Shown here piece after piece: positions 33,361 through 51,033 of a stretch of DNA of 64,000 bases. Position 1 is the first letter of the stretch, and every line of letters starts with the position of its first letter. The notes below the pieces were generated by a model. It did no database searches, was not told the DNA's origin, and saw only the letters and a program-made list of their open reading frames with translations. The translations under genes and the position numbers were made by a program. Source of the stretch: an uncultured cyanobacterium (lineage in GTDB: Bacteria; Cyanobacteriota; Cyanobacteriia; CAKZMO01); contig CAVRCJ010000010.1 of NCBI GenBank assembly GCA_963719515.1, forward strand, positions 288,001 to 352,000, given 5' to 3'.

Positions 33361-33708
33361 ATGAGTGCCGAGGACCTGCACCGCAACGAGATCTGGGAAA
33401 GGCTTGACCAAGGACGACAAGCCAAGTCCGAAGAGGGTGGGTACGCCGGTTATGGTTCGCCGGCCTTCGGGAAAAAGTCAGTCAATGGTGAACTGGTAGA
33501 CGATCCGGCAGAGTGCGAAATCATTGACCTAATTCGCCGTCACCACAAGTCTGGAAAATCTCTACAGAAAATTGCAGACTGGCTCAATCAGCAGGGCTAT
33601 TTAACTAAGCGGGGACGCGCCTGGCAGCGAATATCCGTGAAGCGCGTGCTCGATAGACTCTACGGAAATTCGCCAAGAAGCCGCGGCGTCTCCGAAGACT
33701 TTGAATAA
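33361..33708 (+). CDS. Stand-alone recombinase DNA-binding domain protein
   Basis: SLQKIADWLNQQG..TKRGRAW..VKRVL; no catalytic serine-resolvase domain. Confidence 0.75.
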   Translation: MSAEDLHRNEIWERLDQGRQAKSEEGGYAGYGSPAFGKKSVNGELVDDPAECEIIDLIRRHHKSGKSLQKIADWLNQQGYLTKRGRAWQRISVKRVLDRLYGNSPRSRGVSEDFE

Positions 33709-35172: not shown

Positions 35173-36345
35173 CTAATATTCCGGCACCGAAGGGTCAATT
35201 TCCCGACTCCAGGCTAGAATACCGCCTTTGACGTTGGTGCCTTCGATCCCCGCATCCTTGAGGATGGACAGCGCCTTCGCCGAGCGCCCGCCCATCTTGC
35301 AGTGGGCAATCACCTTATGGCCGTTGACGATCTCTTTCACCTTGGCCACCCCGTCGCCGTTCTCAATATCCGGCAGCGGCACCAGCACCGACCCCGGAAT
35401 TTGGGCGATGTCGTACTCGTGGGGGTTACGCACGTCGAGCAGCACGTAGTCGTCTGCGCCGCTGTCGAGGACCTGCTTCAGCTCCTGCACCGACATCTCG
35501 GCGATCGCCGCCTTTTGTTCTTCTTCCATTGCTTTAGCCTGAGGAATGCCGCAAAACTGCTCGTAGTCAATCAGCTCTTCGATCACCGGGCGCTCGGGGT
35601 TAGGGCGCAGCTTCAGCTCCCGGAAGGTCATGTCGAGGGCGTTGTAGAGCATCAGCCGCCCGCTGAGGGTGTTGCCCTGGCCCAGAATAATCTTGACGGT
35701 TTCGGTGGCCTGGATAGTGCCAATGATGCCGCACAGCACCCCTAGCACCCCGCCCTCGGCGCAGGAGGGCACCAAGCCCGGCGGCGGCGGCTCGGGGTAG
35801 AGATCCCGGTAGTTGGGGCCGCCCTCGTAGTTAAACACCGTGGCCTGACCCTCGAAGCGAAATATCGATCCGTAGACGTTGGGCTTATCGAGCAGCACGC
35901 AGGCGTCGTTTACCAGGTAGCGGGTGGGGAAGTTGTCGGTGCCGTCCACAATTACGTCGTAGTCGCGCATCAGGTCCAGGGCGTTATCTGAGGAGATGCG
36001 GGTGTTGTAGAGGTCTACTTGGCAGAAGGGGTTGATTTCGAGAATGCGCTCTTTCGCGGACTCAATCTTAGGCTTACCAACGGCGGAGGTGCTGTGGATA
36101 ATCTGGCGCTGCAGGTTGGAGCGATCGACGACGTCAAAATCGACGATGCCCAGCCGACCCACGCCAGCAGCGGCGAGGTAGAGCAGCAGCGGGGAGCCAA
36201 GACCACCGGTACCAATACACAGAACGCTGGCGGCTTTAAGGCGCTTTTGGCCCTCTAGCCCCACCTCCGGCAAAATTAGGTGGCGGGAGAAGCGCTCGTA
36301 TTCTTCGCGGGAGAGCTGGACGTCGTCCAGGTTTGGATTCAGCAT
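35173..36345 (-). CDS. moeB: MoeB/MoeZ adenylyltransferase-rhodanese
   Basis: GTGGLG, SNLQRQ, DGTDNF, C-terminal rhodanese CKMGGRS. Confidence 0.95.
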   Translation of the reverse strand: MLNPNLDDVQLSREEYERFSRHLILPEVGLEGQKRLKAASVLCIGTGGLGSPLLLYLAAAGVGRLGIVDFDVVDRSNLQRQIIHSTSAVGKPKIESAKERILEINPFCQVDLYNTRISSDNALDLMRDYDVIVDGTDNFPTRYLVNDACVLLDKPNVYGSIFRFEGQATVFNYEGGPNYRDLYPEPPPPGLVPSCAEGGVLGVLCGIIGTIQATETVKIILGQGNTLSGRLMLYNALDMTFRELKLRPNPERPVIEELIDYEQFCGIPQAKAMEEEQKAAIAEMSVQELKQVLDSGADDYVLLDVRNPHEYDIAQIPGSVLVPLPDIENGDGVAKVKEIVNGHKVIAHCKMGGRSAKALSILKDAGIEGTNVKGGILAWSREIDPSVPEY

Positions 36346-36431
36346 GGCAATCTAGCTTCGATGCAATGTGCAGTGTAGGAACAAGGCCCCCTAAGGGCGC
36401 ACGTCTGACAGCGATGCTTGCTTTGAAAGCG

Positions 36432-36553
36432 TTATGGGCGAGGCGTTACAAGCAGCGCTTCAGGCTGAAATTGCCTGTCGTCATTCAAGCCTCCAGCATA
36501 AGACATCTTGAGCCGTACCGTGTTGGACGGACACAATGATATACGAATAGTGG
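36432..36553 (-). pseudogene. Displaced 3' end of the Mov34/JAMM gene (island boundary)
   Basis: Reads HYSYIIVSVQHGTAQDVLCWRL..(1-nt insertion)..DRQFQPEALLVTPRP*, aligning with 47063-47177. Confidence 0.88.
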
Positions 36554-36664
36554 AAACAGAAATGGTGCGATGGAATCTGCGCTCCGCTGCGCGATCGCAC
36601 TTTGATGACAATCATGGGTTGCGAATGGCGATGAAGCCATGCCTCCGCTACGCGATCGCTGCTC

Positions 36665-37086
36665 GTGACATACTCCCGACGCTCATTCTACGAATAGAGC
36701 GCGGGCTTCTTGGCTCGCGCACCACAAATGAATGGGTGCCGCACAAGAAAGTTTCCTGCTTCTCCTGGTCTTGTCTAGCCAAACAGCAAGCTGTATGACC
36801 CCGATTAGATCCCATCCACAGGCAATTTATTTTACGTCCAGGCAATGACCAACCCCAGACAGACTACTTTTTTGAGCTTCCTTTCTTCCAAAAACTGTGT
36901 CGCGTCACCGTTATGTTTTCTATGGGTGATATTTTTCTCGACGAACACTTTGGAGGGGTAGAAAACCTTGCAAACAGTTGATATGTATACATTCTAGCAT
37001 GAATAAGGATTGTTCGCCTTTGGCTCACGAGCCTTTCATCCCGACGCTGATGCTGCGCATACAGCGCGGGACTTCCCGTCTAAGAG
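36665..37086 (-). mobile_element. Non-autonomous IS200/IS605 derivative, family B, copy 1 (422 bp)
   Basis: Ends match 59740-61137; target TTTAA at 37087-37091; inverted near-copy of 44124-44545. Confidence 0.93.
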
Positions 37087-37125
37087 TTAAAATTACGTCA
37101 CAAGCCCTGTATGACGTAGGCTGCA

Positions 37126-37736
37126 ATGGTTCAAGCAAGTGCTCTACTGATGAGCTTTGAAGCGTTTCTGGCATGGAAGCCAGAGACGGGACGGTATGAG
37201 CTGCACGATGGAGTGGTGGTTGAGATGCAGCCGACAGGGGCGCATGAGAGAGTTGTTGGACTGCTGAATCGCAAGCTGAATGTCCTAATCGACCAGGACG
37301 ATTTGCCCTATTTTATTCCCAACACGGCGATGATTCAGCCTCTGGGCTACGAGAGTGGCTACAAGCCGGACGTCCTGATGCTGGATTCTACGGGGCTCGT
37401 AACAGGGAGCCGTTGTGGGAGCGGGAGTCGGTGGTGACGCTGGGGGAGTCGGTGGTGGTGGCGGTTGAGGTGGTTTCGACCAACTGGCCAGACGACTACG
37501 CCCGTAAGTTTGAAGACTATGAGGCGATGGGCGTTGCCAACTACTGGATCGTTGACTATTTGGGACTGGGGGGGCGGCGCTATATTGGCTCGCCGAAGCA
37601 GCCGACGATTACGGTCTGTACGCTGGTGGATGGGGTTTATCAGACGCGGCTGTTTCGTCGGGGGGATGCGGTGGTGTCTCCAAGCTTTCCTCAGTTGAAA
37701 TTGACGGCGGAGCAAGTGTTTGAGGCGGGTGAGTAA
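37126..37736 (+). pseudogene. Uma2 (DUF820) endonuclease, frameshifted near 37405
   Basis: YELHDG..YKPDV and VAVEVVSTNW..YWIVDY lie in two frames. Confidence 0.85.
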
Positions 37737-38091
37737 AAACCGGAGAATTAGGGGGACTGTACCGGAACTTGAGCAAGCTGCGTGGCGGCTGCGCCAGAAT
37801 CTTACGCCAGCGGAGGCGAGGCTATGGCGATCGCTGAGGAATCGGCAGCTTGAGGGACTACGGTTTCGCTGTCAGCATCCGGTTGGGCGGTTTATTTTGG
37901 ATTTTTATTGCCCGTCGCAGAAGCTGGTAATCGAGGTGGATGGGGGTGTGCATGATGAGCAGGCTGAGTATGATGCTGCGAGGACTGAGCAGCTTGAGGC
38001 ATATGGGTACCGGGTTCTGCGGTTTACGAATGAGGCGGTGATGGCAGATTTGAATGGGGTGTTGGAGGAGATTCGTCGGGCAGTTTTGTAA
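37729..38091 (+). CDS. DUF559 endonuclease-domain protein
   Basis: LRQNLTPAEARLW, FRCQHPVG, IEVDG..H, YRVLRFTN. Confidence 0.9.
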   Translation: MSKNRRIRGTVPELEQAAWRLRQNLTPAEARLWRSLRNRQLEGLRFRCQHPVGRFILDFYCPSQKLVIEVDGGVHDEQAEYDAARTEQLEAYGYRVLRFTNEAVMADLNGVLEEIRRAVL

Positions 38092-38303
38092 AAGGGTCTG
38101 TCGTACCGAGTGACACGTCCTGGAGGCCCCCTCCGCCCCCAATTCTGGGGGGACCAGAGAAAGGCCAAACTGATTGACGATAAAGACTTTCAAGAATTCT
38201 AATCTCGAATCCTGCTCCCCCAAATTTGGGGGCTGGGGGGCCTTCTCCGGTGGACAGATCACCAGAACAGCATTTTCCTTCAATCGTTTCAGACACAGAC
38301 CCT

Positions 38304-38476
38304 TTAGGCGGCTCGAAAATCACGACAAAGAGCGCTTGGGGAATTAGGCGCTTGAGGGTGCGAGCGTGGGCGTCGGCGTCGTTGCGTTTGCGGAAGCGGG
38401 CGACGGTAATGCGTTGGGCTTTGGGCAGCAGACGAATGATGCACCAGGGGTGGAGTTGGGTTCGGTAGTGCGACAT
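38304..38476 (-). CDS. Small basic cyanobacterial hypothetical protein (3' end uncertain)
   Basis: MSHYRTQLHPWCIIRLLP..VARFRKRNDADAH..IFEP; the frame stays open to 38024, but a stop at 38304 is one base out of frame. Confidence 0.6.
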
Positions 38477-38728
38477 GGTTTGGTTTGTTGAATGGGTATG
38501 CAACGGTAGGGGCATACGGTCGTATGCCCAGAATCTGGCGCAGGAAAATTTGCCTCCGCAGATGCAGAGGCCCAAAAAGGCGGAAGATTTGCAGCAGAAT
38601 ATGACCCCGAGTGGCGGTGCTATCGACTGCAAACAAAAAACGGTTTGTGCCTCGGAGATGAGACACTAAGGGAAAGCCGCAATCAGCTCTGTGAAGCTGT
38701 CCTGCGGGATTGTGTTTATCTTCAATAT

Positions 38729-38775
38729 GAAGTCTACTTCTAAATCAGGGCGCTGTCAAGAAGTATGCTTCTAAA
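38729..38775 (-). promoter_or_regulatory. Sigma70 promoter overlapped by two operator-like repeats
   Basis: TTGACA (38759-38754)-N17-TAGACT (38736-38731) on - strand; GAAGTnTnCTTCTAAA at 38729 and 38760. Confidence 0.7.
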
Positions 38776-38786
38776 ACTTTTTGGGT

Positions 38787-39044
38787 ATGACTGAATCTGA
38801 TAAGGAGCCAAAGCAGGACATCTCGCCGCTGAAGCGGTTGCGGCAGCAGGCGGGAATGACCCAGGCGGAGCTGGCGCGTCAAATTCCGGATAAGTCGGGG
38901 AATGGGACGCTGTCGCAGCGGGCGGTTAGTGCTTGGGAGCGGGGGGAGTATCAGCCGGAGCTGACAATTCCACAGATGAAGGCGCTGTGTCGGGCGTTGG
39001 GGGTGACGTTGGAGGAGTTGCCGGATGATATGCGGCCTGGATAG
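38787..39044 (+). CDS. XRE-family HTH regulator
   Basis: LKRLRQQAGMTQAELA..VSAWERG..LCRALGVTLEEL. Confidence 0.9.
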   Translation: MTESDKEPKQDISPLKRLRQQAGMTQAELARQIPDKSGNGTLSQRAVSAWERGEYQPELTIPQMKALCRALGVTLEELPDDMRPG

Positions 39045-39094
39045 GCGATCGCTTCTTGTTGCTTGCAGAAAAAAGCCCGACCAATGTAGGTTTT

Positions 39095-39500
39095 AGCTCG
39101 GACGGTTGAGCTCTGAGGCTAAACGGTCGGTCTTTTTACTCAAGGGATGCAGCTCAGAGCTCGGGCAATGCAGTTCTGAGCTCGAAGCGTGCAGTTCTGA
39201 ACTCGGACGGCGGAGCTCTGAGCTTGAAGCGCTTGGTGGTGCAGAAATCTCGGCCAGAGAATATTGATTCTCATAGAAAGGCTGGAAAAGCTCAGATACG
39301 TACTCTCAAACCACGCAAATACGTGGGGAATTGCCTCAATTTGCCCTGAACTGCGGAAATTGTCGTTTTCGGCGAAATCCTTTAGTACCAATGCTTTCAG
39401 GAGTTCTCTGCACCACTAAGGCTTGAAGCGTGAGACTCTGAGCTCGGGTAGTGGAGTTTTGGGCTCGGAGGATGCAGCTCGGAACTTGGATGATGGGTCT
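39095..39500. repeat. Degenerate 21-bp-period tract interrupted by a MITE
   Basis: Units like GCAGTTCTGAGCTCGAAGCGT; the - strand reads SSELHxx heptads. Confidence 0.65.
39232..39420. mobile_element. 189-bp TIR-type MITE with 10-bp target duplication
   Basis: TIR CTTGGTGGTGCAGA / TCTGCACCACTAAG (13/14); GCTTGAAGCG at 39222-39231 and 39421-39430. Confidence 0.9.
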
Positions 39501-39515
39501 TTTTACTCCATTGGG

Positions 39516-39836
39516 TCAAGTGGCGTGCTGCTCTGCCTGCGCCATGAATTCGTCTAGGAGTTGAAAGAATTTGTAGAATCCAGCTTTTTCGTCGTGGCAG
39601 GAGAGCATGAGCAGCTTCGCCCAGCTGGTGACGCTGGTGACGCCTAGCTTTTCCTGCAGCCAGGGCTGGAAGTTTTCGTAGAAGTGGTTTTCGGCTTTGC
39701 TGGGGGCTTGGCCGAGTTCGGTGCGGGCGAAGTCGTAGCCGATGGGGGATGTGGGGCGATCGCTGACGGAGGGGCGACCAATATATAGCCCTGGAGACTA
39801 TTTGATTTTGTCTAGGGTAGTGAAGAGATCTGTCAT
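39516..39836 (-). pseudogene. Conserved cyanobacterial hypothetical protein, with a nonsense codon and a frameshift
   Basis: MTDLFTTLDKIK*SPGLYIGRPSVSD..GYDFARTELG..FQPWLQEK..SWAKLL..FFQLLDEF. Confidence 0.65.
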
Positions 39837-39851
39837 TTCAGCACGCCTTTT

Positions 39852-42800
39852 TTAATCGCTGATTCCCTGAAGGGCCTTTTGCTGCTCTTCCAAAATCCAA
39901 TCCGCGTCGGGGGTGAGTTCTAAGGCGCGTTCGAAATCGGTTAGGGCCTGCTCGTAGCGTTCTGTCTGCCGATAAGCTGTGCCGCGCTTGGCGATCGCCC
40001 AGGCATAGTCATTATTTAGCTCAATAGCCCGGTCGAAGTCTGTTAGAGCTTCTTCATAGCGCACCATCAAACGGTAAGTTTCGCCGCGGCTAGCGATCGC
40101 CCAGTCATCGCTAGGGGCGAGTTCAATGGCTCGATTGAGGTCTGTCAGAGCTTCTTCATAGCGTTCTATTTTGCGGTAGGCGTCGCCACGGTTACCAATT
40201 GCGATCGCATATTGAGGGTCGATGTCGATGGCTTGGGTGTAGTCTGCAATGGCCGCGTCTAAGTCGCCCTGGTCGCTGCGAGCATTGCCGCGATTGTTGT
40301 AAGCGATCGCATATTGAGGGTCGATGTCGATGGCTTGGGTGTAGTCTGCAATGGCCGCGTCTAAGTCGCCCTGGTCGCTGCGAGCATTGCCGCGATTGTT
40401 GTAAGCGAACGCATATTGAGGGTCGAGGTCGATAGCTTGGGTGTAGTCTGCAATGGCCCCATCTAAGTCGCCCTGGGCTCTGCGAGCATTGCCGCGATTT
40501 TTATAGAAAAGCGCTTTTTGGGGCTCGAGTTCAATAGCTTGAGTAAAATCTCTAATCGCTCCTCGGCCATCGCCTTGTGCTTCGCGGGCAAGGCCACGGC
40601 TATTGTAGGCACATGGAACACATGAAGCGGGAGGTTGAATCTCGATAGCTTGAGTAAGATCCTCAATAGCCTGCTCTAGATTTCCCTCGCCAAAATGAAT
40701 CTGCCCACGAGCATAGTACCCATAGGCATTCTCGGGATCAAGGTCAATAGCCTGGCTGAAATTCTTTACTGCTTCCTCATAGCGTTCTAGCTCTTCATAA
40801 GCTTCTCCCAAATGGATATAAGCATTCACCAAACTAGGCCTAACCTCTACAGCACGAGAGTAGTCTTCAATGGCTCCTACAATATCACCTTGTGCTTTGC
40901 GGACAAGGCCACGACCAACATAAGCACATGGAACACACGGAGCAGGAGGTTGAATTTCAATAGCCTGAGTAAAATCTTCAATGGCCTGCTCTAACTTATC
41001 CTGGCCATAGTAAAGGCTAGCTCGCCAATAGTAAGCATCAGAAAATTGAGGATCAAGCTCGATAGTTCGAGTATAATCCTCAGTAGCTCCTACAATATCG
41101 TCTTGTTCAATACTGTTGCGCTCACGGCGAGCCCTGCCGCGATAATAGTAAGTAATTGCATCCAAAGGATTATAAGATATAGCACGGTCAAAATCCCCAA
41201 TTGCCGCTTGCAAGTTACCTTGATTTCTATAAACAACGCCACGTAATTTGTGAAGCTCTCCTCTTTTCTCTCTGTTCGAGGTTTTTTCGAGCTTACGCGA
41301 GTAATAGCTAATGGCATAGTCGAAATCGGCGAGCGATTTCTCTTCGTTTCCTTGACGCTCATGAATAAGGCCACGAGTAAGATATGCCTCTGGATACTCA
41401 GGCTGAAGCGCTATAGCAGAATTTACTTGTTCTAACGCAAGCGGGTAATTCTCTGAAATTAGCAGTGAGATACCTATGTAATGATAAGCGTCTGCGTCTT
41501 CAGGATAAATCTCAAGTAACGTATTACTAGCTATAGCAATAATTTCAGCTTCTTCTCTCTCTAAAACAAGGCCGGCTGATGGCAAGGGCTCTACATTTAA
41601 TGATTGGCGCGAGCCCTCAACTGCATTGGCAGTCGTTGCATTTCCTAATTGTATAGGCGTGAGCGAGTTGCCGCTAAATAAATTCCACGTTAACGTAGAA
41701 AGTGTGTTTCTCAAATTCTCTGCTGTTACTGTATTTGGCTCAATCTCAAGCGCCCGTGTATAAGATTTTACGGCTTCAAGTACGCGCCTAGAACTCAGAA
41801 AAGCATTGCCACGCCCAACATGAGCGATGTGATTATCTGAACTGATATCTATAACCGCGTCGAAGCTTTGTAGGGCAAGATCAAAATCCCCCATTTGTGT
41901 ATGAAATTCTCCTTTAGCTATTAGAGCGTGTAAATTGTCAGAGTTTTCTCTTAGAATTTTATTAAGCTGAGCGATCGCCTCTTCACGATTCCCTTGGGCA
42001 AAACTAGACACAGCAGCAGTTATCGGAAAAATATCTTCCAAATCGCGCTCTTGCTCGGCAATATTAGCTTGTAGTATATCGGCCTCTTCTTCGGCTGCTT
42101 CGACGTCACGTAAAGCCTGCTCACGATCTGTCTGTGCAATAGTCAAATCGCCCCGAGCTTCAGACAAATTTTGTCGTGCTACTTCGGCTTGCTGCTGTGC
42201 TGAAGCTTGTTCGGCCTGAGCCTGTTTCGCGTCCTGGGTAGCTTGCTGATTTTGCCGCTTTAAAGCATTGTTGGTGTTTTGTAACCCGCTATTCTCCCCG
42301 GCCAATGTCTGATTTTTAGCTTGTAGCTCGCTCTGCTCATCTTGGACACCTTTTAGCTCCCGCAAGGCATCTGATTTGTCACCCTCAGCTTGTTGAGACA
42401 CCTGTAAAGCATTTTGCTTTTCGCGCTCAGCCTGCTGTGATTCCTGCTTAGACTCCTCAGCAAGAATTCGCTGCTCCGACGCTTCACGGGAAGCCACGTC
42501 TGCCCTGTTAATAGCCCAGCCCGAAAATATAGCCAATAGGCCCAACAGGCCAACACCTGCACCTGCTGCCCTACGACTAACCTTCTGCACCTGTTCCAGT
42601 TTCTGCCGCGCGATCGCAAGCTGCCCATTCGTCTCCTCCAGCGCCAGATTCCGCGCCTCCAGCCGCTGACTCGCCGCCGCCACCGCCGCCCGTTTCTCCT
42701 CCAGCTCCCGCCGCAGTCCCAGCTTCTGGCTCTCCACCAAATACTCATAATCCTGCTTGCTCAAGCTCCGCGACTCCGCCCAGTCCAGCGCCGCCCCAAG

Positions 42801-43988
42801 CGCCGCCCCCTGCAGCAAATCCCCATCCGATCGCGTCCCCAACCAAGCCTCAATCTCCTCCCCATAGGGCCGCAAATCCCCCAGCGCCTTCGCCACCCAA
42901 CCCGCCGAAAACACTGAGCCATAGATCGGGTTATGCACGCACAGCAGCCCGCCACACTCCACCACCACACCCGCCAGCCGCAGCTCCATCTGCTGACCGC
43001 TCGCATCCGCCTCAATCTCTTCTCCTTCTAAAACCTGCCGGTACAGCCCCAGCCGTCGCCCCTCCGTCGCCTTCACCCGCTCATCCAGCAGGCGATCGCG
43101 TATCGTCCGCAAATGCTCCGGCTCGTCCTGCGCCTCCCAATTCTCAATCACCCGCTCCCGCACCAAGTTCTCCACCATCACCGCCTCATCCCCGGCAGCA
43201 ATAAACGGCAACCCCTGAACCATCCCGCAAATCTTCTGCGTCAAAAACGGTTGCCCATTTGTCCAGTGCAGCACCGCCCTCAGCACCGCCTCCGGCTGCG
43301 CCGCAAAAGGCCATAGCCCCGCCACTAGTGGCCCCGTCTCTTGCGCCTCAAACCCCCGCAGCGCGATCGCATGCCCCACGTTAAACGGCGTCCGCTGCTT
43401 ATCTTCGATTAAATCCGACGGCGTCGCCACCCCCAACAAGCAAAACGTCAGCCGCTTAAACGCCGGCTTATCCGCCCGCTGGTTATAGCAATTGCGAATA
43501 ATCGTAAAAAAGTTATCCAGAGAAAACGACAAGCTCAGCACCGTGTCGATCTCGTCAATAAACACGGCGATCGGCTGCTGCACCTCCCGCAGCACCACCA
43601 TCTCCAAAAACTCCCCCAGCCGCTGCACCGCCGGGATTTCATTCCGCTCTCGCCACCACTGGCGAAAGTTCACCCGCGCCGTCAGCCCCAGCTCTTGCGC
43701 TAGCCTACGCGTGAACCCCGCATACCACCGGTCTGGCGTAATATCCTTGCCGCCCCCCACCTGCGTCAGGTCAATGGCCGCACAGGCCACTCCCTCCGCC
43801 TTCAGCCGCCCCATCGTCTGCACCCGTAGACTAGACTTGCCCATCTGCCGCGAATTCAGCACATAGCAAAACTCCCCGGCTTTGAGGCGATCGTACAGCT
43901 CATCATCCGCCTGCCGCTTCACATAGCTGGGCGCATCCGCCGGTAAGCTGCCGCCAACTTGGTAGGTATACTGCGAGCTCTGGGACAT
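39852..43988 (-). CDS. AAA_35 P-loop NTPase-TM-coiled coil-TPR protein
   Basis: [23 protein letters not shown] Walker A, FIDEID Walker B, TM near 42510-42570, many TPRs. Confidence 0.9.
40201..40506. repeat. 102-bp TPR-coding tandem repeat (2 apparently identical units and 1 diverged)
   Basis: 40201-40302 repeated at 40303-40404. Confidence 0.9.
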
Positions 43989-44123
43989 GGGGCCTATAAG
44001 ATAATCGCGTCAACAAAATCTGTATAGTCTCCCTTGGTAAGGGGGACGCCGAAGGCGGGGGTCAAGCAAAACTGCTATCTAGCCAGAATAGTCCAACTTT
44101 TTCTGCAGCCCCTACTTTTTTAA

Positions 44124-44545
44124 CTTTTAGACGGGAAGTCCCGCGCTGTATGCGCAGCATCAGCGTCGGGATGAAAGGCGCGTGAGCCAAAGGCGAACAA
44201 TCCTTATTCATGCTAGAATGTATACATATCAACTGTTTGCAAGGTTTTCCACCCCTCCAAAGTGTTCGTCGAGAAAAATATCACCCATAGAAAACGTAAC
44301 GGTGACGCGACACAGTTTTTGGAAGAAAGGAAGCTCAAAAAAGTAGTCTGTCTGGGGTTGGTCATTGCCTGGACGTAAAATAAATTGCCTGTGGATGGGA
44401 TCTAATCGGGGTCATACAGCTTGCTGTTTGGCTAGACAAGACCAGGAGAAGCAGGAAACTTTCTTGTGCGGTACCCATTCATTTGTGGTGCGCGAGCCAA
44501 GAAGCCCGCGCTCTATTCGTAGAATGAGCGTCGGGAGTATGTCAC
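44124..44545 (+). mobile_element. Non-autonomous IS200/IS605 derivative, family B, copy 2 (422 bp)
   Basis: TTTAA at 44119-44123, ends in TCAC; about 5 differences seen from copy 1. Confidence 0.93.
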
Positions 44546-45175
44546 GTTTTCTTCTCTTAGCGATCGCGCAAACCGCTTCAAAATTTGTAGCACCACCGCC
44601 AAGTCATTGCGGCTATCGATGGCAAACAGATCCGACTGCCCGTAGTACGGCTGCGGCTGAGCTACCAGCTTGAGAAAGCGAAACGTAGACCCATTGCTCA
44701 CAAACCCAAACGTCGGCTGCGAACCATTGGGGCTACCCAGCATATAGGCCAGCGCTTGCGGAATCGCCGTTTCCACAGAATACGCCACCTGCTTCGACTC
44801 AATCACCGTTACCCAAAAGGGTGGAGAAAACGCTAGCAAATCAATTCGCCCCCGAACCACCAATCCCTCATCCTCAGAGGCGATCGCCACCTCTTTTTCA
44901 GCCGCTAGATAGAAGGGCGGTTGGTAGAAGGTGGCTAGCCTTAGCAGCGGCGACAGCACCACCATCTTCACCATCGGCTCCAGCATCGAATACTGCGATA
45001 GGTGGCGATACTCTGCCTTCACCTCAGCGATCGCCTGCTGCTCTGCTACCGTTAATTCGGGTAAGTCCGTTTGCCACTCGGGGAAAAACTGCTCGTCGTC
45101 GCTGCGCGTGAGGCCAAAGCTGTCCTGCAAATCGGGCAGCGTTATCTGACTAGCGGGAATTGCTTGAACCATCAC
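44513..45175 (-). CDS. PD-(D/E)XK / HsdR-N-like small nuclease-fold protein; C-terminus altered by the IS derivative
   Basis: RGRIDLL..VIESKQ..IPQALAYML..FVSNGS.FRFLKL. Confidence 0.75.
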   Translation of the reverse strand: MMVQAIPASQITLPDLQDSFGLTRSDDEQFFPEWQTDLPELTVAEQQAIAEVKAEYRHLSQYSMLEPMVKMVVLSPLLRLATFYQPPFYLAAEKEVAIASEDEGLVVRGRIDLLAFSPPFWVTVIESKQVAYSVETAIPQALAYMLGSPNGSQPTFGFVSNGSTFRFLKLVAQPQPYYGQSDLFAIDSRNDLAVVLQILKRFARSLREENVTYSRRSFYE

Positions 45176-45335
45176 TCAATCCTCCATCGCTGACATATTT
45201 ATCATATCTACCCTGCCCTATCGGAAAGGCAAATAGCCTATCTCCCCAACCGATCGCCGTACGGGCGGGTTTAGCAAAAACGCCTCGGTCTTGACCAAAA
45301 CGTAACTGCCAAACCCGCCCCGACGTATTTATCTT

Positions 45336-46873
45336 TTATCCCCCCAACCGATCGCCAAAATACCGCCGATATAAATCGCACCGGGGCACCACCTCATTGC
45401 CCCGCAAATGCACCACCCCCATACTATGCAGCTGAAACGCCTGCACCGACTCCAGCCGCACCGCTTCTCGTGCCGTCATCACCCGCCGAATCGCCCCCAC
45501 CATTTCCGAGCGCTGCTGCAAATTCCACAGGTGCCGCCGCAGGTGGTCACCGTAGGGTCCTTCCTCCGTCGGCGCAATTTCCAGCAGCTTATCCAAGGTT
45601 GTTTCTTTGCGGGCGATCGCATACAGCGCCACGCGCACCAAATAGGGGTGCCCCCCCACCATCGCCATCAGCCGCTCGGTCTCCTCCTCTCCCCAGTTCA
45701 AACCGTGCCGCTGGGCCAAATCCTGCACCTGTCCCGCGCCAAACTCCACCAGCTCAATCGGCAGCCCCACGTTAAAGGGCGACTGGTTAATATTCATGGG
45801 GATGTACACCTCCGTCGACTACACCACCACCAGCCGCAGCTGCTTCCACAGGTCATCCACCTTCGCCGACTCGTGCCAGGCCCGCAGCAGCCCCATAAAA
45901 TCCGCCGCGATGTTGGGGTGCTCAAACACCATGTCTACCTCGTCTAGCCCCAGCACCAGCGGCGAAGACAGGTTGGGCAGCAGGTACTCCTCAAAGTAGG
46001 CGGTGCAGTTGTCCTTCGCGCCAAAAATCTCCGCATCCCAGTAGTCCTTCAGCTTGTTGGGCAGCTTCAGCCGCCGGGCAATGCTGGCGCAAAACCAGCG
46101 CAAAAACTTGTCCAAATCCGAGAGATGGCCGCATCCGCCAGTTGAAAGCTGAGGGGCACCGTAGGCACGCCGCTTTCCGCGCTGCTGGCATGCAGCAAAA
46201 TCCGCGACATCAGCGAGGTTTTGCCCATCTGGCGCGGGGCCTTGATGCGGATCAGCGCGCCGGGCTTCAGCACCGTCTCGTAGCAGTTGGCCTCCAGCGG
46301 CGGGCGCTCCACATAATACTGCGAGGCTAAATCTACCTGTCCCCCCGGCAGCTCCGGCGGCGCAACGGGGACCGGGGGCGCTCGGGCTGGTCGATTAGCG
46401 GGCCTGAATCAGGCTGTGACTCGGGTTTAGGCGGCGCTGTCCGCTGGCCTTCTACGATCTCCAAAATATCCTGCAGCACGCGGGGCGTGTCTTCGGGCGA
46501 TCGCCACTGTCCCTGCTGGATGGGGTTGAGGTAACCCCGCAGGTCGTAGTTCATGGGGGATTCAAACGGAAAATTGACCCGAATCGGCAAGAGCTTGGGC
46601 TTGTCTAACTCTCGGGTATCCCGCAGCTCCCGGGCCCGCCGTACCTCTTCGGTCACCATCTCGCTGGTGGCCGACTGGGGCGACAGCAACAGCACAAAGT
46701 AATCGCAGCGTTCCAGCGCCTGATCAATGCGGGCGGACCAGTTGTCCCCCAGGCGAATGCTCTCCGCCGCCATGAATACCTCGTGCCCGGCACCCTGGAG
46801 CACCCGGTGAAATTCCCCCTGCCAGGTCGCTATCGGGCGGCTGACTGCGGTAGCTAATGAAGATGTGAGTCAT
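45336..46873 (-). pseudogene. TIR + AAA_35 NTPase gene, with 3 frameshifts and 1 in-frame stop
   Basis: MTHIFISYRS..LLLSPQSATSEMVTEE (TIR); APRQMGKTS; LDEVD; VVV*STEVY; indels near 46817, 46372 and 46120, TAG at 45819-45821. Confidence 0.85.
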
Positions 46874-47062
46874 GTTTGGGCGCGGGCGCGGGTATCACCA
46901 TCAGCATAGTTCAGAGTTTTCTACAGTCTACAATTTTTTAGATTTCTCTCTTGCTCGATAGCCACCGCCGGAACACCAAAGCGCTGAAATCGGACCATAT
47001 CGCTGCTGCACGAACTGATGGGGATGAGGCGCTGTCGGTGATTGATAGGGTCGAGCCCACAG

Positions 47063-47530
47063 TCAAGACGTAATTAGCAGCGCTTCGGGCTGAAACTGCC
47101 TATCCTCATCAAGCCTCCAACACAGCACATCCCGAGGGACGCCATGATGGACGGACACAATGATATATGAATAGTGGGACCAGGCGACCAGGCGATCGCA
47201 CTCTGAGGGCAGCGCCGGGTGGTCGGGGTGGGAATGGATGATGCCGATGATGTCGAGCTCTAAGTCGCGGGCGTCTTTTTGAGCCTTCAGCATATCTCTG
47301 GGATCGATGGTGTAGCGGCTGGTTTTGGTGCGGGCTTCAGCGGCTTGGCGGGCGTCGGTGATGTTTTCTGCGGCGGACCAGACGTTGGGCACGAGGCGTA
47401 CTTCAACAAGTTGACGAATCGCATCGCTTTCACTTCGGCCCAGCAGAATGCCGCAGCCCTCTTCGGGGTAGGCTTGCTCGCCGCAGTGGGCGATCGCCTC
47501 CATATGCTCGGGGGTCAGCCGCAAGACCAT
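47063..47530 (-). CDS. Mov34/MPN/JAMM (M67) metallopeptidase
   Basis: YPEEGCG, HSHPDHPALPSECD JAMM motif. Confidence 0.93.
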   Translation of the reverse strand: MVLRLTPEHMEAIAHCGEQAYPEEGCGILLGRSESDAIRQLVEVRLVPNVWSAAENITDARQAAEARTKTSRYTIDPRDMLKAQKDARDLELDIIGIIHSHPDHPALPSECDRLVAWSHYSYIIVSVHHGVPRDVLCWRLDEDRQFQPEALLITS

Positions 47531-47545
47531 CGCACCACTCCCCTG

Positions 47546-48373
47546 CTATCGCTTCTTTTTCTTGGTGCTTTTCTTCGCGGCCCCAAACCCTTTCACCGAT
47601 GCCAGCGGTGGTGATGGAAACTGCGGTATCTCTTTAGCCTTGAGCGCGACATATCTTCTGGCAGCCTTAAGCCTCTCCGAGACTTTCGGCTTTAGCTGCT
47701 TTGGCGTAAAGTCTGACTCTTGTTTCAGCCCCAGCCTCACCTGCACCATTGGCCAACTTGTGGCAATCGTTTCGTCAATCTCTTTACTAGAAAAAACAGT
47801 TTCAATGAGCGGAGCCGCTTCTGCCGCCTTAAGCTCGGCCAGAGTATCAATCAGACACGAATCTAGGAAATCGTCTTCTCGACTCTCGTGGTTTTCCAGC
47901 TCCGCCATCAGCCGTTCGATGCAGCTCTGGCGATGCTGAGGATGTTTTGTCGCGATCGCTTCAAGACAGGCCATGAAGAAGATCCGATCGTGGGCAGCAT
48001 GCCGCGAGTTGTGAAAGTATTTTGCGGTGGGTGCGATCGCGCTTTCCCCGATCAATCCGATGGCTTCGGGGATATTCTGCTTGAAGTAATCGTCGTCTTG
48101 CAGCAGTAGCTTGAGCAAGGGGGCGATCGCCTCTTCTGCGCGAAGCTGCCCCAGAGCCCGAACGGCATGGATAGGGGCCCACGACGCTTTATTTGTCTCA
48201 GCAAGTTGGTCAAATAGCGGATCGCAGGCCATGCGAATCAGCTCAGGGGCATCAGCCTCCGTCAACCCAAAGCGCTCAGGGTAGTTCACCCAGCTTTCAG
48301 CCTTGTACTTGTTGTAGCTAGCGTCACAGTCTAGTAGCGCAGCGACAGATCCGGTATACGACTCTAACCCCAT
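47546..48373 (-). CDS. HEAT-repeat / DUF1186-like protein
   Basis: WAPIHAVRALGQLRAEEAIAPL; C-terminal KGFG..KKKKR. Confidence 0.7.
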   Translation of the reverse strand: MGLESYTGSVAALLDCDASYNKYKAESWVNYPERFGLTEADAPELIRMACDPLFDQLAETNKASWAPIHAVRALGQLRAEEAIAPLLKLLLQDDDYFKQNIPEAIGLIGESAIAPTAKYFHNSRHAAHDRIFFMACLEAIATKHPQHRQSCIERLMAELENHESREDDFLDSCLIDTLAELKAAEAAPLIETVFSSKEIDETIATSWPMVQVRLGLKQESDFTPKQLKPKVSERLKAARRYVALKAKEIPQFPSPPLASVKGFGAAKKSTKKKKR

Positions 48374-48376
48374 AGT

Positions 48377-50503
48377 TCACCCCTTTAAATATCGCTCCAT
48401 TGCCCGTAGCGCTGTCCAAATCAGCTTAAAGTATCCCGGCTCAGCAACATCGATTGCCGCAGCTTCTGACCGGCTAGCCCCGAGTAGTCCCTCACCGGTT
48501 ACCCCATCCACCACCAGCACCTCCTGCTGGCCGTTCCGCAGCCGCAGCTCTGAGCCGTCCTCCCGCTGAAACACGCCGCAGACGTAGGGGCGCTCGTTGT
48601 GGGTAAAGCGAATCGGCTTCACCGCTTGGTGCGCCAGCCCCGAGACCTCGATCCTATCCACGTCGATATCTTCCACCGCAGGCCGCGCCCCCGCCAGCTC
48701 TAGCTCCACGCTCTGCTTCCCCTGCCACTCGTTGAGCCGCAGCTTATAGGCCACGTCCAATCTCTCTGGCAGCGGGTAATAGTCCCCCCAGCGCCAGGCG
48801 ATCGCCGTCCTTTGGGCCGATTTACCTGAACCAGCGGGGTCTTCTAGGGTCAGCTTTAGGTGACTGCGATCGCGGCCTACGGTGCGCTGCTCTACCACTC
48901 GCACCCCCGGCGTCCAAAACAGCGGCTCCGGGTTGCCAATGCCGCAGGGCTGCAGGCGGTCCATTTGCTGAAACAGCTCTAGAGTGACGACGCTGAGGGG
49001 GGTCTGGCCGTCGATATTGAGCGCGGGCTTGAGGTGGTGGGGATGCAGGGTGAGGTTGGCGTAGAGCTGCAGGCGGCGGCGAAAGGCCTCTAGGTTGGCG
49101 GCAGGCAGGGTGAAGCCCCCGGCGGCGGGGTGACCGCCAAACTTCCCCAGCACCGAGCCGCTAAACTGCAGCGCCCCGAACACGTCAAACTCAGGGATGC
49201 CCCGGGCGGAGCCGCGCAGGTGCTGGGCCTGACTCAGGTCGCTGGTGGGGCTCAGCTCGGCCTCGTCCACATCCTCGTCCGTGCCGATGAACACCGGCAC
49301 CCCGTAGCGCTCCACGAGACGTGAGGCCACAATGCCAATCACGCCGTGGTGCCAGCCGGGGCGCACCACCACCAGCACCCGCTCTTCCGCTAGGTCAGGC
49401 TTGGTGGTCTCGATGTAGGCGATCGCCTCCGCCTCAATTAGCTCGCACAGCTGGCGGCGGGTGCCGTTGACCTGCTCGCAGGCCATGGCCCGCTCTAGGG
49501 CCACACCCTCGTCGTCGGTGGTCAATAGCTCAATCACCGTCTGTGGGTTGCTGATTCGCCCCACGGCGTTGATACGTGGCCCCAGCCGAAACCCAATCGC
49601 TTCCGGCTTCAGCGCCTTTTTACTGCCCTCTATTCCCGACACCTGAATCAGCGCCTTCACCCCCGCAATCTTGGAGTGCGGCAGCAGCGCCAGCCCCTGC
49701 TGCACCCAGCGGCGGTTCACCCCCGTCAGAGAAGCGAGGTCGGCAATGGTGCCTAGGGTAAACAGCGCCAGCAGCGGGTCCGCCAATAGCAGACCGTAGC
49801 CCAGCGACTCCGCCAGCTCCCGCGCCAGCAGGTAGGCGACCCCAACGCCCGCCAGCCCCCGGTAGGGCGATCGCTCATCGATCAGCTTGGGGTTCAAGAT
49901 GGCGTTGGCGGGGGGGATTTGGGGCGGAACGTCGTGATGGTCGGTGATAATTACCGCCAAGCCTAGCTCCCGCGCCCTGGCGACAGGGTCGTAGGCGGCG
50001 ATGCCGTTGTCTACGGTGAGGATAATCTGCACACCTTCGGCGTGGAAGTCCTCCACGATGCGGCGGTTGATGCCGTAGCCCTCCATCATGCGGCTAGGTA
50101 TTGCATAGTCCACATCCGCACCCATGGCCCGCAGCGCCCGAATTAGCAGCGCCGTGCTGGTCATCCCGTCGGCGTCGTAGTCGCCGCAGATGGCGATCTT
50201 TTGGTCGGTGGCGATCGCCTGGCTCAGCAGCTCTAGGGCGTGGGCAAAGTCAGGGAAGTCGTCACCGGCGGCGGGCAGGGTCTCTAGGGTGGGGTCTAAG
50301 AACCGCGCTGCGGCCTCTACGGTATCAAAGCCCCGGTTGACCAACACCTGGGCCAGCAGGGGCGGCAGGTCGGTGGCGGCGGCGATCGCCCTTGCCTCGG
50401 CTGACAGTTCAGTAATACGCCACCGCTGCTCCGGCAACGATCGAGATTGAGAGGCAGCATCAAAGGCGGAGGGGCGAGGGTCAGATAGGGGAGGATGAAC
50501 CAC
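48377..50503 (-). CDS. recJ: ssDNA exonuclease RecJ
   Basis: GDYDADG, TVDNG, TDHH, GTIAD, GGH. Confidence 0.95.
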   Translation of the reverse strand: MVHPPLSDPRPSAFDAASQSRSLPEQRWRITELSAEARAIAAATDLPPLLAQVLVNRGFDTVEAAARFLDPTLETLPAAGDDFPDFAHALELLSQAIATDQKIAICGDYDADGMTSTALLIRALRAMGADVDYAIPSRMMEGYGINRRIVEDFHAEGVQIILTVDNGIAAYDPVARARELGLAVIITDHHDVPPQIPPANAILNPKLIDERSPYRGLAGVGVAYLLARELAESLGYGLLLADPLLALFTLGTIADLASLTGVNRRWVQQGLALLPHSKIAGVKALIQVSGIEGSKKALKPEAIGFRLGPRINAVGRISNPQTVIELLTTDDEGVALERAMACEQVNGTRRQLCELIEAEAIAYIETTKPDLAEERVLVVVRPGWHHGVIGIVASRLVERYGVPVFIGTDEDVDEAELSPTSDLSQAQHLRGSARGIPEFDVFGALQFSGSVLGKFGGHPAAGGFTLPAANLEAFRRRLQLYANLTLHPHHLKPALNIDGQTPLSVVTLELFQQMDRLQPCGIGNPEPLFWTPGVRVVEQRTVGRDRSHLKLTLEDPAGSGKSAQRTAIAWRWGDYYPLPERLDVAYKLRLNEWQGKQSVELELAGARPAVEDIDVDRIEVSGLAHQAVKPIRFTHNERPYVCGVFQREDGSELRLRNGQQEVLVVDGVTGEGLLGASRSEAAAIDVAEPGYFKLIWTALRAMERYLKG

Positions 50504-50619
50504 AGACGGCTTAACCTTCGTGGATAGCGACCGGAGGGACTAGGCCTCAGTATAGAGAGCTAGCGTATGGAACCCCGCTTTCGTAACAAAATCTCAAGGG
50601 ATGGACTCTAGAAATTGCG

Positions 50620-51027
50620 GTGAATACTCCCTATGCGAACCGTCTTGACCTTGAATCCATTAGGGATAGGGCGGTGCAGAACGATGCGCATCGTGCCCAG
50701 CTTAAGCAACTTGATTTGGCTACCCGTCACCGGGTTTTCCTTGAACTGCGGAAAGAGGAACGAGCGGTACTGCCCAAACTTTTTGAAGCGCGGAAAACCA
50801 TGACCTCTCTCCTTCCTCGCAGCAAATGCTGCCTCTACCCTGCGAATAGGCTCTTGAAGCACCTGAGACTGCACGTCCTTCAGGTGAGGAAATATCTTCT
50901 TAGCCGCAGTCAGCGCATTTTGCTGCTTGTAGTAGTGCGCCGCTCCTTAATTGTTCGCCTACGGCTCACGCGCCCTTCATCCCGACGCTGATGCTGCGCA
51001 TACAGCGCGGGACTTCCCGTCTAATAG
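50620..51027 (-). mobile_element. Doubly deleted family-B tnpB element
   Basis: Left end with TTTAA (51028-51032), internal tnpB fragment, only the last 12 bp of the right end (GGGAGTATTCAC). Confidence 0.9.
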
Positions 51028-51033
51028 TTAAAG

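Follow-up and report, generated by a model that had tools for sequence, protein, structure and literature searches.

A probable accessory-gene hotspot within a cyanobacterial JAMM–moeB operon, with a displaced JAMM gene tail that is probably kept as a moeB promoter

Organization of the JAMM–moeB locus

We examined a 64000-nt stretch (the window; contig positions 288001–352000) of the 5.28 Mb genome of an uncultured cyanobacterium, here called G000, which has 7737 HIP1 sites. The minus strand of the window carries, in this order, recJ, a HEAT-repeat gene, a gene for a JAMM metallopeptidase, approximately 10.4 kb of cargo, a fragment of the JAMM tail and moeB. A copy of the JAMM tail stands on either side of the cargo, a related genome has the corresponding site empty, and the end next to moeB is, as judged by sequence identity, the native one. 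From these comparisons we consider it probable that this is an accessory-gene hotspot inside the JAMM–moeB operon, entered by cargo with the assistance of homology, with the displaced tail kept as the moeB promoter and without the integrase att site that a first-pass annotation of the window had proposed. The features that bear on this reading are the following.

47546..50503, minus strand: upstream backbone, HEAT-repeat gene and recJ, in the same order in the congener G004
47063..47530, minus strand: intact JAMM/Prok-JAB gene, 155 aa (Pfam Prok-JAB, E 2e-23, over the cut-off)
36432..36632, minus strand: displaced native JAMM tail, from about codon 104 to the stop codon, with a 1-nt frameshift
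36572..36595, minus strand: 24-nt insert that interrupts a HIP1 site after its third base, with SDR5-like geometry
36495..36530, minus strand: putative internal moeB promoter (from its presence or absence across the copies, its coordinates and synonymous constraint; its function is a prediction)
35173..36345, minus strand: moeB (E1/ThiF plus rhodanese), 390 aa (Pfam ThiF, E 8e-81, and Rhodanese; NCBIfam PRK07411, over the cut-off)

The JAMM/JAB metallopeptidases carry the motif E...H-x-H-x7-S-x2-D, which appears in the window protein as H99-x-H101-x7-S109-x2-D112, and a HIP1 site of the intact gene (47192–47199) falls on codons 111–113. The tail of this gene occurs twice on the minus strand, at 47076–47183 and at 36451–36559 (109 columns, 80.7% identity, E 3e-21), and no further second match of this kind exists anywhere in the 5.28 Mb genome. 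This agrees with the duplication described in the first-pass annotation, whose quoted 30-mer we located in both copies, and the left copy lacks a start, as had been stated there. It also carries a 1-nt insertion which places it in two tblastn frames, although single-base frameshifts in G000 may be sequencing errors, and it ends approximately 90 nt ahead of the moeB start. Its other limit, previously put at 36553, lies at approximately 36630: homology is clear over 36432–36559 and appears to continue in decayed form to approximately 36630, as judged through the congener G003. From 36645, the G003 sequence agrees with the window fragment at 83%, and the fragment of G003 can itself be aligned to the intact G004 gene as far as approximately codon 104, once a 25-nt insert within the HIP1 site is bridged. 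The 24-nt insert of the window occupies the same place as this 25-nt relative, is missing from one contig of run X1, and has a related second 24-nt unit at 36633–36656. An assembly artefact was ruled out, the two copies being only 81% alike and the same fragment being present in three congeners and a metagenome locus, and so was the idea that the left copy belongs to a separate full paralogue, as the genome-wide search gave no other JAMM match.

Empty and occupied sites in related genomes

The genus is represented by five genomes, one per species, namely G000 and its congeners G001–G004. We searched 40 relatives for the JAMM gene, with a match in 29 and a long-gene match in 28 of these 29, and 401 genomes of the class, with a match in 296; the query of this wider survey may miss short remnants in distant genomes. 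A scan of named genomes gave four loci with no new alleles (two of the four closest JAMM records carry the label Elainellaceae), and a metagenome scan gave a single locus, L068. Contigs from runs X1, X2 and X3 were also compared.

The empty site is that of G004, in which JAMM from codon 20 to its end, an 81-nt spacer and moeB lie on one contig (C416); recJ, the HEAT-repeat gene and the JAMM start sit on a second contig, with an overlap of 35/36 nt. Among the 28 relatives with the long gene, moeB lies at most 1.4 kb downstream of JAMM in 18 and does not in nine, one being undecidable. Together with the joined pair in G004, this bears out the earlier proposal that cargo had split a JAMM–moeB operon. 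Four of the five genomes of the genus are split at JAMM, and the tail fragment lies directly 5′ of moeB in G001, G002, G003 and L068, although the long JAMM gene itself was not found in G003 (a genome 89% complete).

Comparison of the cargo, which extends only up to the points at which the relatives' contigs break within it, agrees with the expectation of variable content, since the accessory genes at the site differ in part among the five genomes. In G001, JAMM is followed by a ferritin-like gene and in G002 by an intact caspase–TIR–AAA_35 gene, whose residues 249–767 are matched by the broken remnant in the window, whereas in L068 an aminoacyl-tRNA synthetase gene precedes the tail fragment. 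A small open reading frame (ORF) before the tail fragment is common to G001 and G003, and Uma2 is found in both G001 and G002.

Outside the family, eight of the 296 genomes with a match had two JAMM matches. Five of these represent one gene scored in two adjacent pieces and another a transposase-like insert; in G089 a separate JAMM piece starts at another HIP1 site. Only G194, from another family, has a true tail copy, which lies 2 kb downstream and begins with the GATCG of the same codon; the loci read there contain no moeB. On this evidence JAMM is a hotspot at the level of the genus, with one or more independent cases elsewhere, and not a class-wide att site. At L098 (in G271:C3), JAMM is interrupted at codon 103–106 by a transposase-like insert of 1 kb, and its tail is not duplicated.

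The moeB-side copy is the native JAMM end

The left fragment matches the intact tail of G004 at 93/96 bases and 29/32 third positions, whereas the in-place tail matches it at 78/96 bases and 19/32 third positions (59%). Because of this difference the moeB-side copy is, on sequence identity, the native end of JAMM, as the first-pass model needed it to be. The same model held that an element had brought a replacement 3′ end with it, and this part is not supported, because the in-place tail diverges only at the background level of the genome, with no step at the junction: third-position identity with G004 is 59–70% in the rest of JAMM, 68% in recJ and 67% (261/391) in moeB. By this measure it is the left fragment that is the odd sequence, being conserved too well for idle DNA. 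A phylogeny of the 3′ ends, which had been suggested as a check, did not resolve them (96-nt tree, support 38–81).

A conserved element in the displaced tail

Within the displaced tail we identified an element consisting of a palindrome, CCGT-N5-ACGG (36518–36530), a 17-nt spacer and a TAnnnT hexamer, TATGCT (36495–36500), pointing at moeB. The full motif is present in all 13 copies of the family that are known to be moeB-proximal (eight intact genes and five fragments), and also in G016, whereas none of the seven in-place or unlinked JAMM copies has it, the in-place tail of the window included. The five fragments together show 40 differences from G004, none of which falls in the 11 motif positions; the in-place copies have two, two and three differences at these positions. 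Constraint at synonymous sites points in the same direction. Three other genera supplied four within-genus pairs, and in these the synonymous identity is 93/109 over codons 121–152 and 193/333 over codons 5–120 (nominal p 7e-8, with one member, G016, of unknown linkage), whereas there is no such rise in the genus in which JAMM lies away from moeB (24/42 compared with 93/154 for the same codon ranges) or in the in-place copies of the window's own genus (44/66 compared with 162/245). Moreover, the TA of the hexamer requires a CTA or TTA leucine codon, which together make up 20% of leucine codons in G000. As a control, the displaced tails of clpB have decayed, with 171/183 and 161/182 matches to G004 compared with 177/183 for the in-place copy.

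These data clearly point to a DNA-level element in JAMM codons 121–152 that travels with moeB adjacency. It is quite likely, judging from its layout and constraint, that this element is an internal and probably factor-dependent promoter of moeB, and the displaced JAMM tail is conserved and probably functional, a point absent from the first-pass annotation. Two alternatives were tried and rejected. A structured RNA as the source of the constraint is not indicated by the folding z-scores (−1.2 to +0.8 in five folds) or by a consensus fold with a positive covariation term, and Rfam gave two sub-threshold hits, both at the hairpin near 45258–45325. As for a conserved upstream ORF, its ATG is present in G000, G004 and L068, but not in G002 and G003.

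Several observations weigh against the promoter reading. A strict sigma-70 scan gave no site in 36300–37150, and a consensus −35/−10 pair at 16–18 nt is lacking, the element offering only the TAnnnT hexamer with the palindrome at the −35 position. None of the six moeB-linked genes outside the family has the full motif, the palindrome being kept in two and the hexamer in two. Across the genome the palindrome is not enriched (83 sites at N5 compared with 29–117 at other spacings), no regulon for it was seen, and the exact 17-nt layout occurs at one site only. The motif was defined on the same sequences in which it is counted, and only about three of its synonymous positions are free of protein constraint. 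Finally, because the genomes are related, the 13 versus 7 split amounts to about six lineages and the p-values overstate the contrast.

In genus g2, in which JAMM is unlinked, no JAMM remnant was found before moeB in any of the four genomes. By eye, all four loci (L040, L042, L044 and L046) have a looser palindrome of the same spacing, CYGW-N5-ACRG, directly before a TATGAT that lies approximately 60 nt upstream of moeB. This is possibly a site for the same factor that has been rebuilt.

Integrase and att site

No recombinase or integrase family was found in the island by Pfam searches of 108 distinct six-frame open stretches of at least 50 aa (36400–47100) and of the 1378-aa ORF, in line with the first-pass annotation, which had noted that the island has no integrase. 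Across the genome, PF00589 has a single match, 108 kb away from moeB, PF00239 and PF00078 have none, and there is one ComEC-family gene, which would be relevant to host competence. We rejected the recombinase-domain ORF at 33361–33708 (115 aa), as it has only the DNA-binding Recombinase domain PF07508 and no catalytic domain, in a genome that lacks a PF00239 partner, and is not next to moeB in the congeners. A joint of 36484 to 47193 in contigs of X1 and X2 was considered as an excised or joined form, but has a 27-nt side, comes from one study and is likely to belong to another organism, and was not counted.

The locus does have features of an integrative element, that is, a target 3′ end duplicated around cargo and an empty site in G004. 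A decayed or trans-mobilized element, with its attB in JAMM codons 105–113 and a replacement 3′ end brought in with it, would account for this textbook geometry, for the split in four of the five genomes, for the position of the site on conserved catalytic codons, and for the clustering of left ends near codons 104–113 in G000, G002, G003, L068 and G194. Nevertheless, we regard it as unlikely. The left ends taken together fall near codons 104, 110, 112 and 121 and so differ by up to approximately 50 nt, although later trimming could hide a core. No integrase was seen by eye among the ORFs near the site in the relatives, whose contigs are broken, and the genome as a whole has one tyrosine recombinase and no resolvase. 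Furthermore, judged by its synonymous divergence the in-place tail does not look foreign, a downstream tail copy was found in only one of the eight two-match genomes outside the family, and the same layout recurs at six unrelated genes, as described below. The site-specific att site in a protein-coding gene proposed in the first-pass annotation is therefore not supported, because the island has no integrase, the genome has a single tyrosine recombinase and the left ends differ. Of the origins it had offered, homology-assisted recombination fits best, and mobilization in trans or decay of an integrative element fits less well.

Displaced gene ends elsewhere in the genome

Orphan gene ends were scanned over 4470 and 3572 crude ORFs of G000. 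The stricter pass gave 23 orphan end copies, of which 14 were tails downstream, four tails upstream, four heads upstream and one a head downstream. After inspection by eye, paralogue pairs that matched reciprocally were set aside, as were spurious ORFs and a pair resembling a diversity-generating retroelement (DGR), and two short cases were added. This left seven loci (eight copies) with a tail copy 3′ of cargo, and at most two cases in the other three layouts together. The seven loci are JAMM, clpB (twice), an AAA-type gene (assigned by eye), a hydrolase, an amidase, a glycogen debranching enzyme and a phosphatase/mutase. In the congeners, the clpB copy is also present in G002 and short phosphatase-tail copies in G002, G003 and G004, and the debranching-enzyme site is empty in G003 and G004.

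In four of the eight copies a CGATCG is found no more than 15 nt from the junction, against a background of 4.9% per window (p 0.005 at doubled background, a post hoc figure). HIP1-bounded deletions could have trimmed fragments later, and the fragments of G000 and G003 extend approximately 20 nt past HIP1. There was no genome-wide peak of an SDR-like repeat family, the counts being flat over spacings 12–39. At clpB (L069:3040–6711, in G000:C11) two nested displaced tails have Uma2 and HNH cargo between them. After the first of these copies G004 and G000 share 1312 bp at 96% identity, and because of this shared segment the sequence suggests that the congeners exchanged DNA recently at the clpB site.

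At L073:4385–6782 (corresponding to G000:C3:654384–656781), the end of a caspase plus FGE-sulfatase-type gene recurs as a 118-bp copy located 166 bp downstream. The two differ mostly where the copy has A, like a DGR template; the genome has no PF00078 (reverse transcriptase) match.

Proposed mechanism and alternatives

In the sequence of events that we favour, cargo would have entered by recombination anchored in JAMM or upstream of it, probably during natural transformation, and a short-homology join would have been made inside the end of the resident gene, at a junction now overlaid by later inserts. Additional insertions and deletions, along with small mobile elements, may since have changed the cargo. 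The palindrome, as a factor site covering the −35 position, would together with the −10 hexamer drive moeB from a start near 36487, and selection would retain the displaced tail for this promoter, while the in-place copy would retain the coding role only. Two further points count against this account. The in-place tail may equally derive from a local duplication or from replacement by congener DNA, and the starts of the two displaced clpB copies are no more than 1 nt apart, which resembles a site preference.

A single ancient local duplication or insertion in the ancestor of the genus, followed by a division of labour between the copies, with G004 rejoined when its repeats recombined and without any outside transfer, seems to us improbable. 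It would fit the shared cargo (the small ORF of G001 and G003, TIR–AAA_35 after JAMM in G002, and Uma2 of G001 and G002), the HIP1 insert common to G000 and G003, and the fact that G001, the most divergent congener (moeB fourfold sites 54–60%), is split. However, the cargo would still require a source, G194 has an independent tail copy, and the G004 tail has kept its reading frame and is central among all the fragments, which is what one would expect of an intact, ancestor-like copy; the 96-nt tree, as given above, lends it no resolved branching. That the fragment is a neutral, recent relic which resembles G004 through recent gene flow at the moeB leader is very improbable, since, although accessory DNA at clpB is 96% identical between G000 and G004 and the spacer and first moeB codons are likewise highly alike, this block is also under constraint in three other genera and goes together with moeB adjacency, the G001 fragment has 19 differences with none in the motif, and the window fragment has gained a frameshift and an insert.

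The favoured account, of homology-assisted entry with the tail kept as a moeB promoter, could be extended to HIP1-rich cyanobacteria in general, which would then capture genes without an integrase by means of a homology anchor and a join at or near HIP1 or CGATCG in a gene end, idle tails decaying and promoter-bearing tails being kept, as at moeB with its undescribed CCGT-N5-ACGG factor. We put this forward as a speculative extension of the junction counts, and one that is rather doubtful at present. If true, HIP1 would have a definite function, that of the second joint in gene capture, and if the junction bias holds in more genomes, the long-open question of the role of HIP1 would become testable at defined loci.

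Further features of the cargo

The remaining features of the island, whose GC content of 0.542 compared with 0.556 and 0.574 in the flanks is not an anomaly, are listed below.

36664..37092, plus strand: 429-bp gene-less mobile element, forming a 99% inverted pair with a second copy at 44118–44546
37126..37736, plus strand: Uma2 putative endonuclease in two frames (Pfam Uma2 halves)
37720..38091, plus strand: DUF559 protein, followed by short stem-loop repeats
38303..38476, minus strand: core of a conserved small ORF, 58 aa, no family, 95% aa identity to G003
38781..39044, plus strand: HTH_3 (XRE-type) protein (domain match)
39852..43988, minus strand: AAA_35 ATPase with coiled region and TPR array, 1378 aa (domains; 102-nt repeats)
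44118..44546, minus strand: second copy of the 429-bp element, overlapping the end of the next ORF
44513..45175, minus strand: HSDR_N-like protein, 220 aa (E 8e-4, under the Pfam cut-off)
45336..46891, minus strand: broken TIR–AAA_35 gene (domains; four tblastn pieces in three frames)

The 429-bp element, which we take to be probably IS200/IS605-derived, has six near-full copies in the genome with no visible target duplication, and a contig of X3 joins across the copy at 36664–37092. Its end matches 50950–51032, which adjoins a transposase-like fragment at 50608–50874 (no Pfam hit). An inversion between its two copies in the island was not supported, as the small ORF keeps its orientation to moeB in G001 and G003, where its core lies directly before the tail fragment; short pieces of this core were also seen in loci of G013 and G015. 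The stem-loop repeats at 38118–38155 and 38205–38245 have nine and 11 genome hits respectively. A non-coding array of 21-nt units around GAGCTC lies 3′ of the HTH gene (39074–39490), and a long hairpin with three genome hits lies between the HSDR_N-like gene and the TIR–AAA_35 remnant (45258–45325).

Comparison with known systems

If the favoured account is correct, 10 kb of cargo can interrupt an operon and the downstream gene still escape silencing, and what appears to be a pseudogene scrap is probably a promoter. The locus would then be a natural experiment that exposes a hidden cis-element, together with a candidate regulator site for the cyanobacterial JAB–MoeB sulfur-relay pair, and it cautions against taking a duplicated gene tail as proof that an integrase att site is present. 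In the literature searched, which included few subscription papers, no account was found of this locus or layout, or of a displaced tail retained as a promoter, nor any of HIP1 at the junctions of island-flanking gene tails.

The e14 element and phage 21, both of which integrate at icd of E. coli, are integrative elements that restore a protein-coding target. The window resembles them in its intact gene, cargo and displaced 3′ fragment, but they carry an integrase and a fixed crossover, neither of which was found here.

An operon of JAB with an E1–rhodanese fusion has been described in several cyanobacteria (Iyer et al. 2006, Table 1, row 4b; PMC1779556). As there, a JAB/JAMM peptidase gene stands directly before the E1–rhodanese fusion gene in the joined arrangement of G004, whereas the pair in the window is split by 10.4 kb, and the part of that paper drawn on here mentions neither an interruption nor an internal promoter. 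The variable accessory genes between conserved core genes, here in five species-level genomes, are like the transfer hotspots of Oliveira et al. (2017; PMC5635113), fewer than half of which (45%) are reported to have an integrase, and for which a link with natural transformation was proposed.

Homology-facilitated illegitimate recombination is described, in a published summary, as replacing segments in Acinetobacter, Pseudomonas and Streptococcus (PMC2884548). The mechanism proposed here would share with it a single homologous anchor plus an illegitimate join, the lack of an integrase and, putatively, a naturally competent host; the duplicated coding tail and the cyanobacterial setting are our own extension. 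Finally, HIP1 has been linked with smtB excision, SDR5 insertion and raised transformation (PMC13756078 and PMC4390886), SDR5 being a multi-copy 21-nt sequence inserted between bases 3 and 4 of HIP1 and reported from heterocystous strains (PMC4390886). Although the inserts seen here, at 24–25 nt and without a genome-wide peak, differ from SDR5 as it is presented there, they likewise lie between bases 3 and 4 of HIP1, and some of the junctions are likewise at HIP1 or CGATCG.

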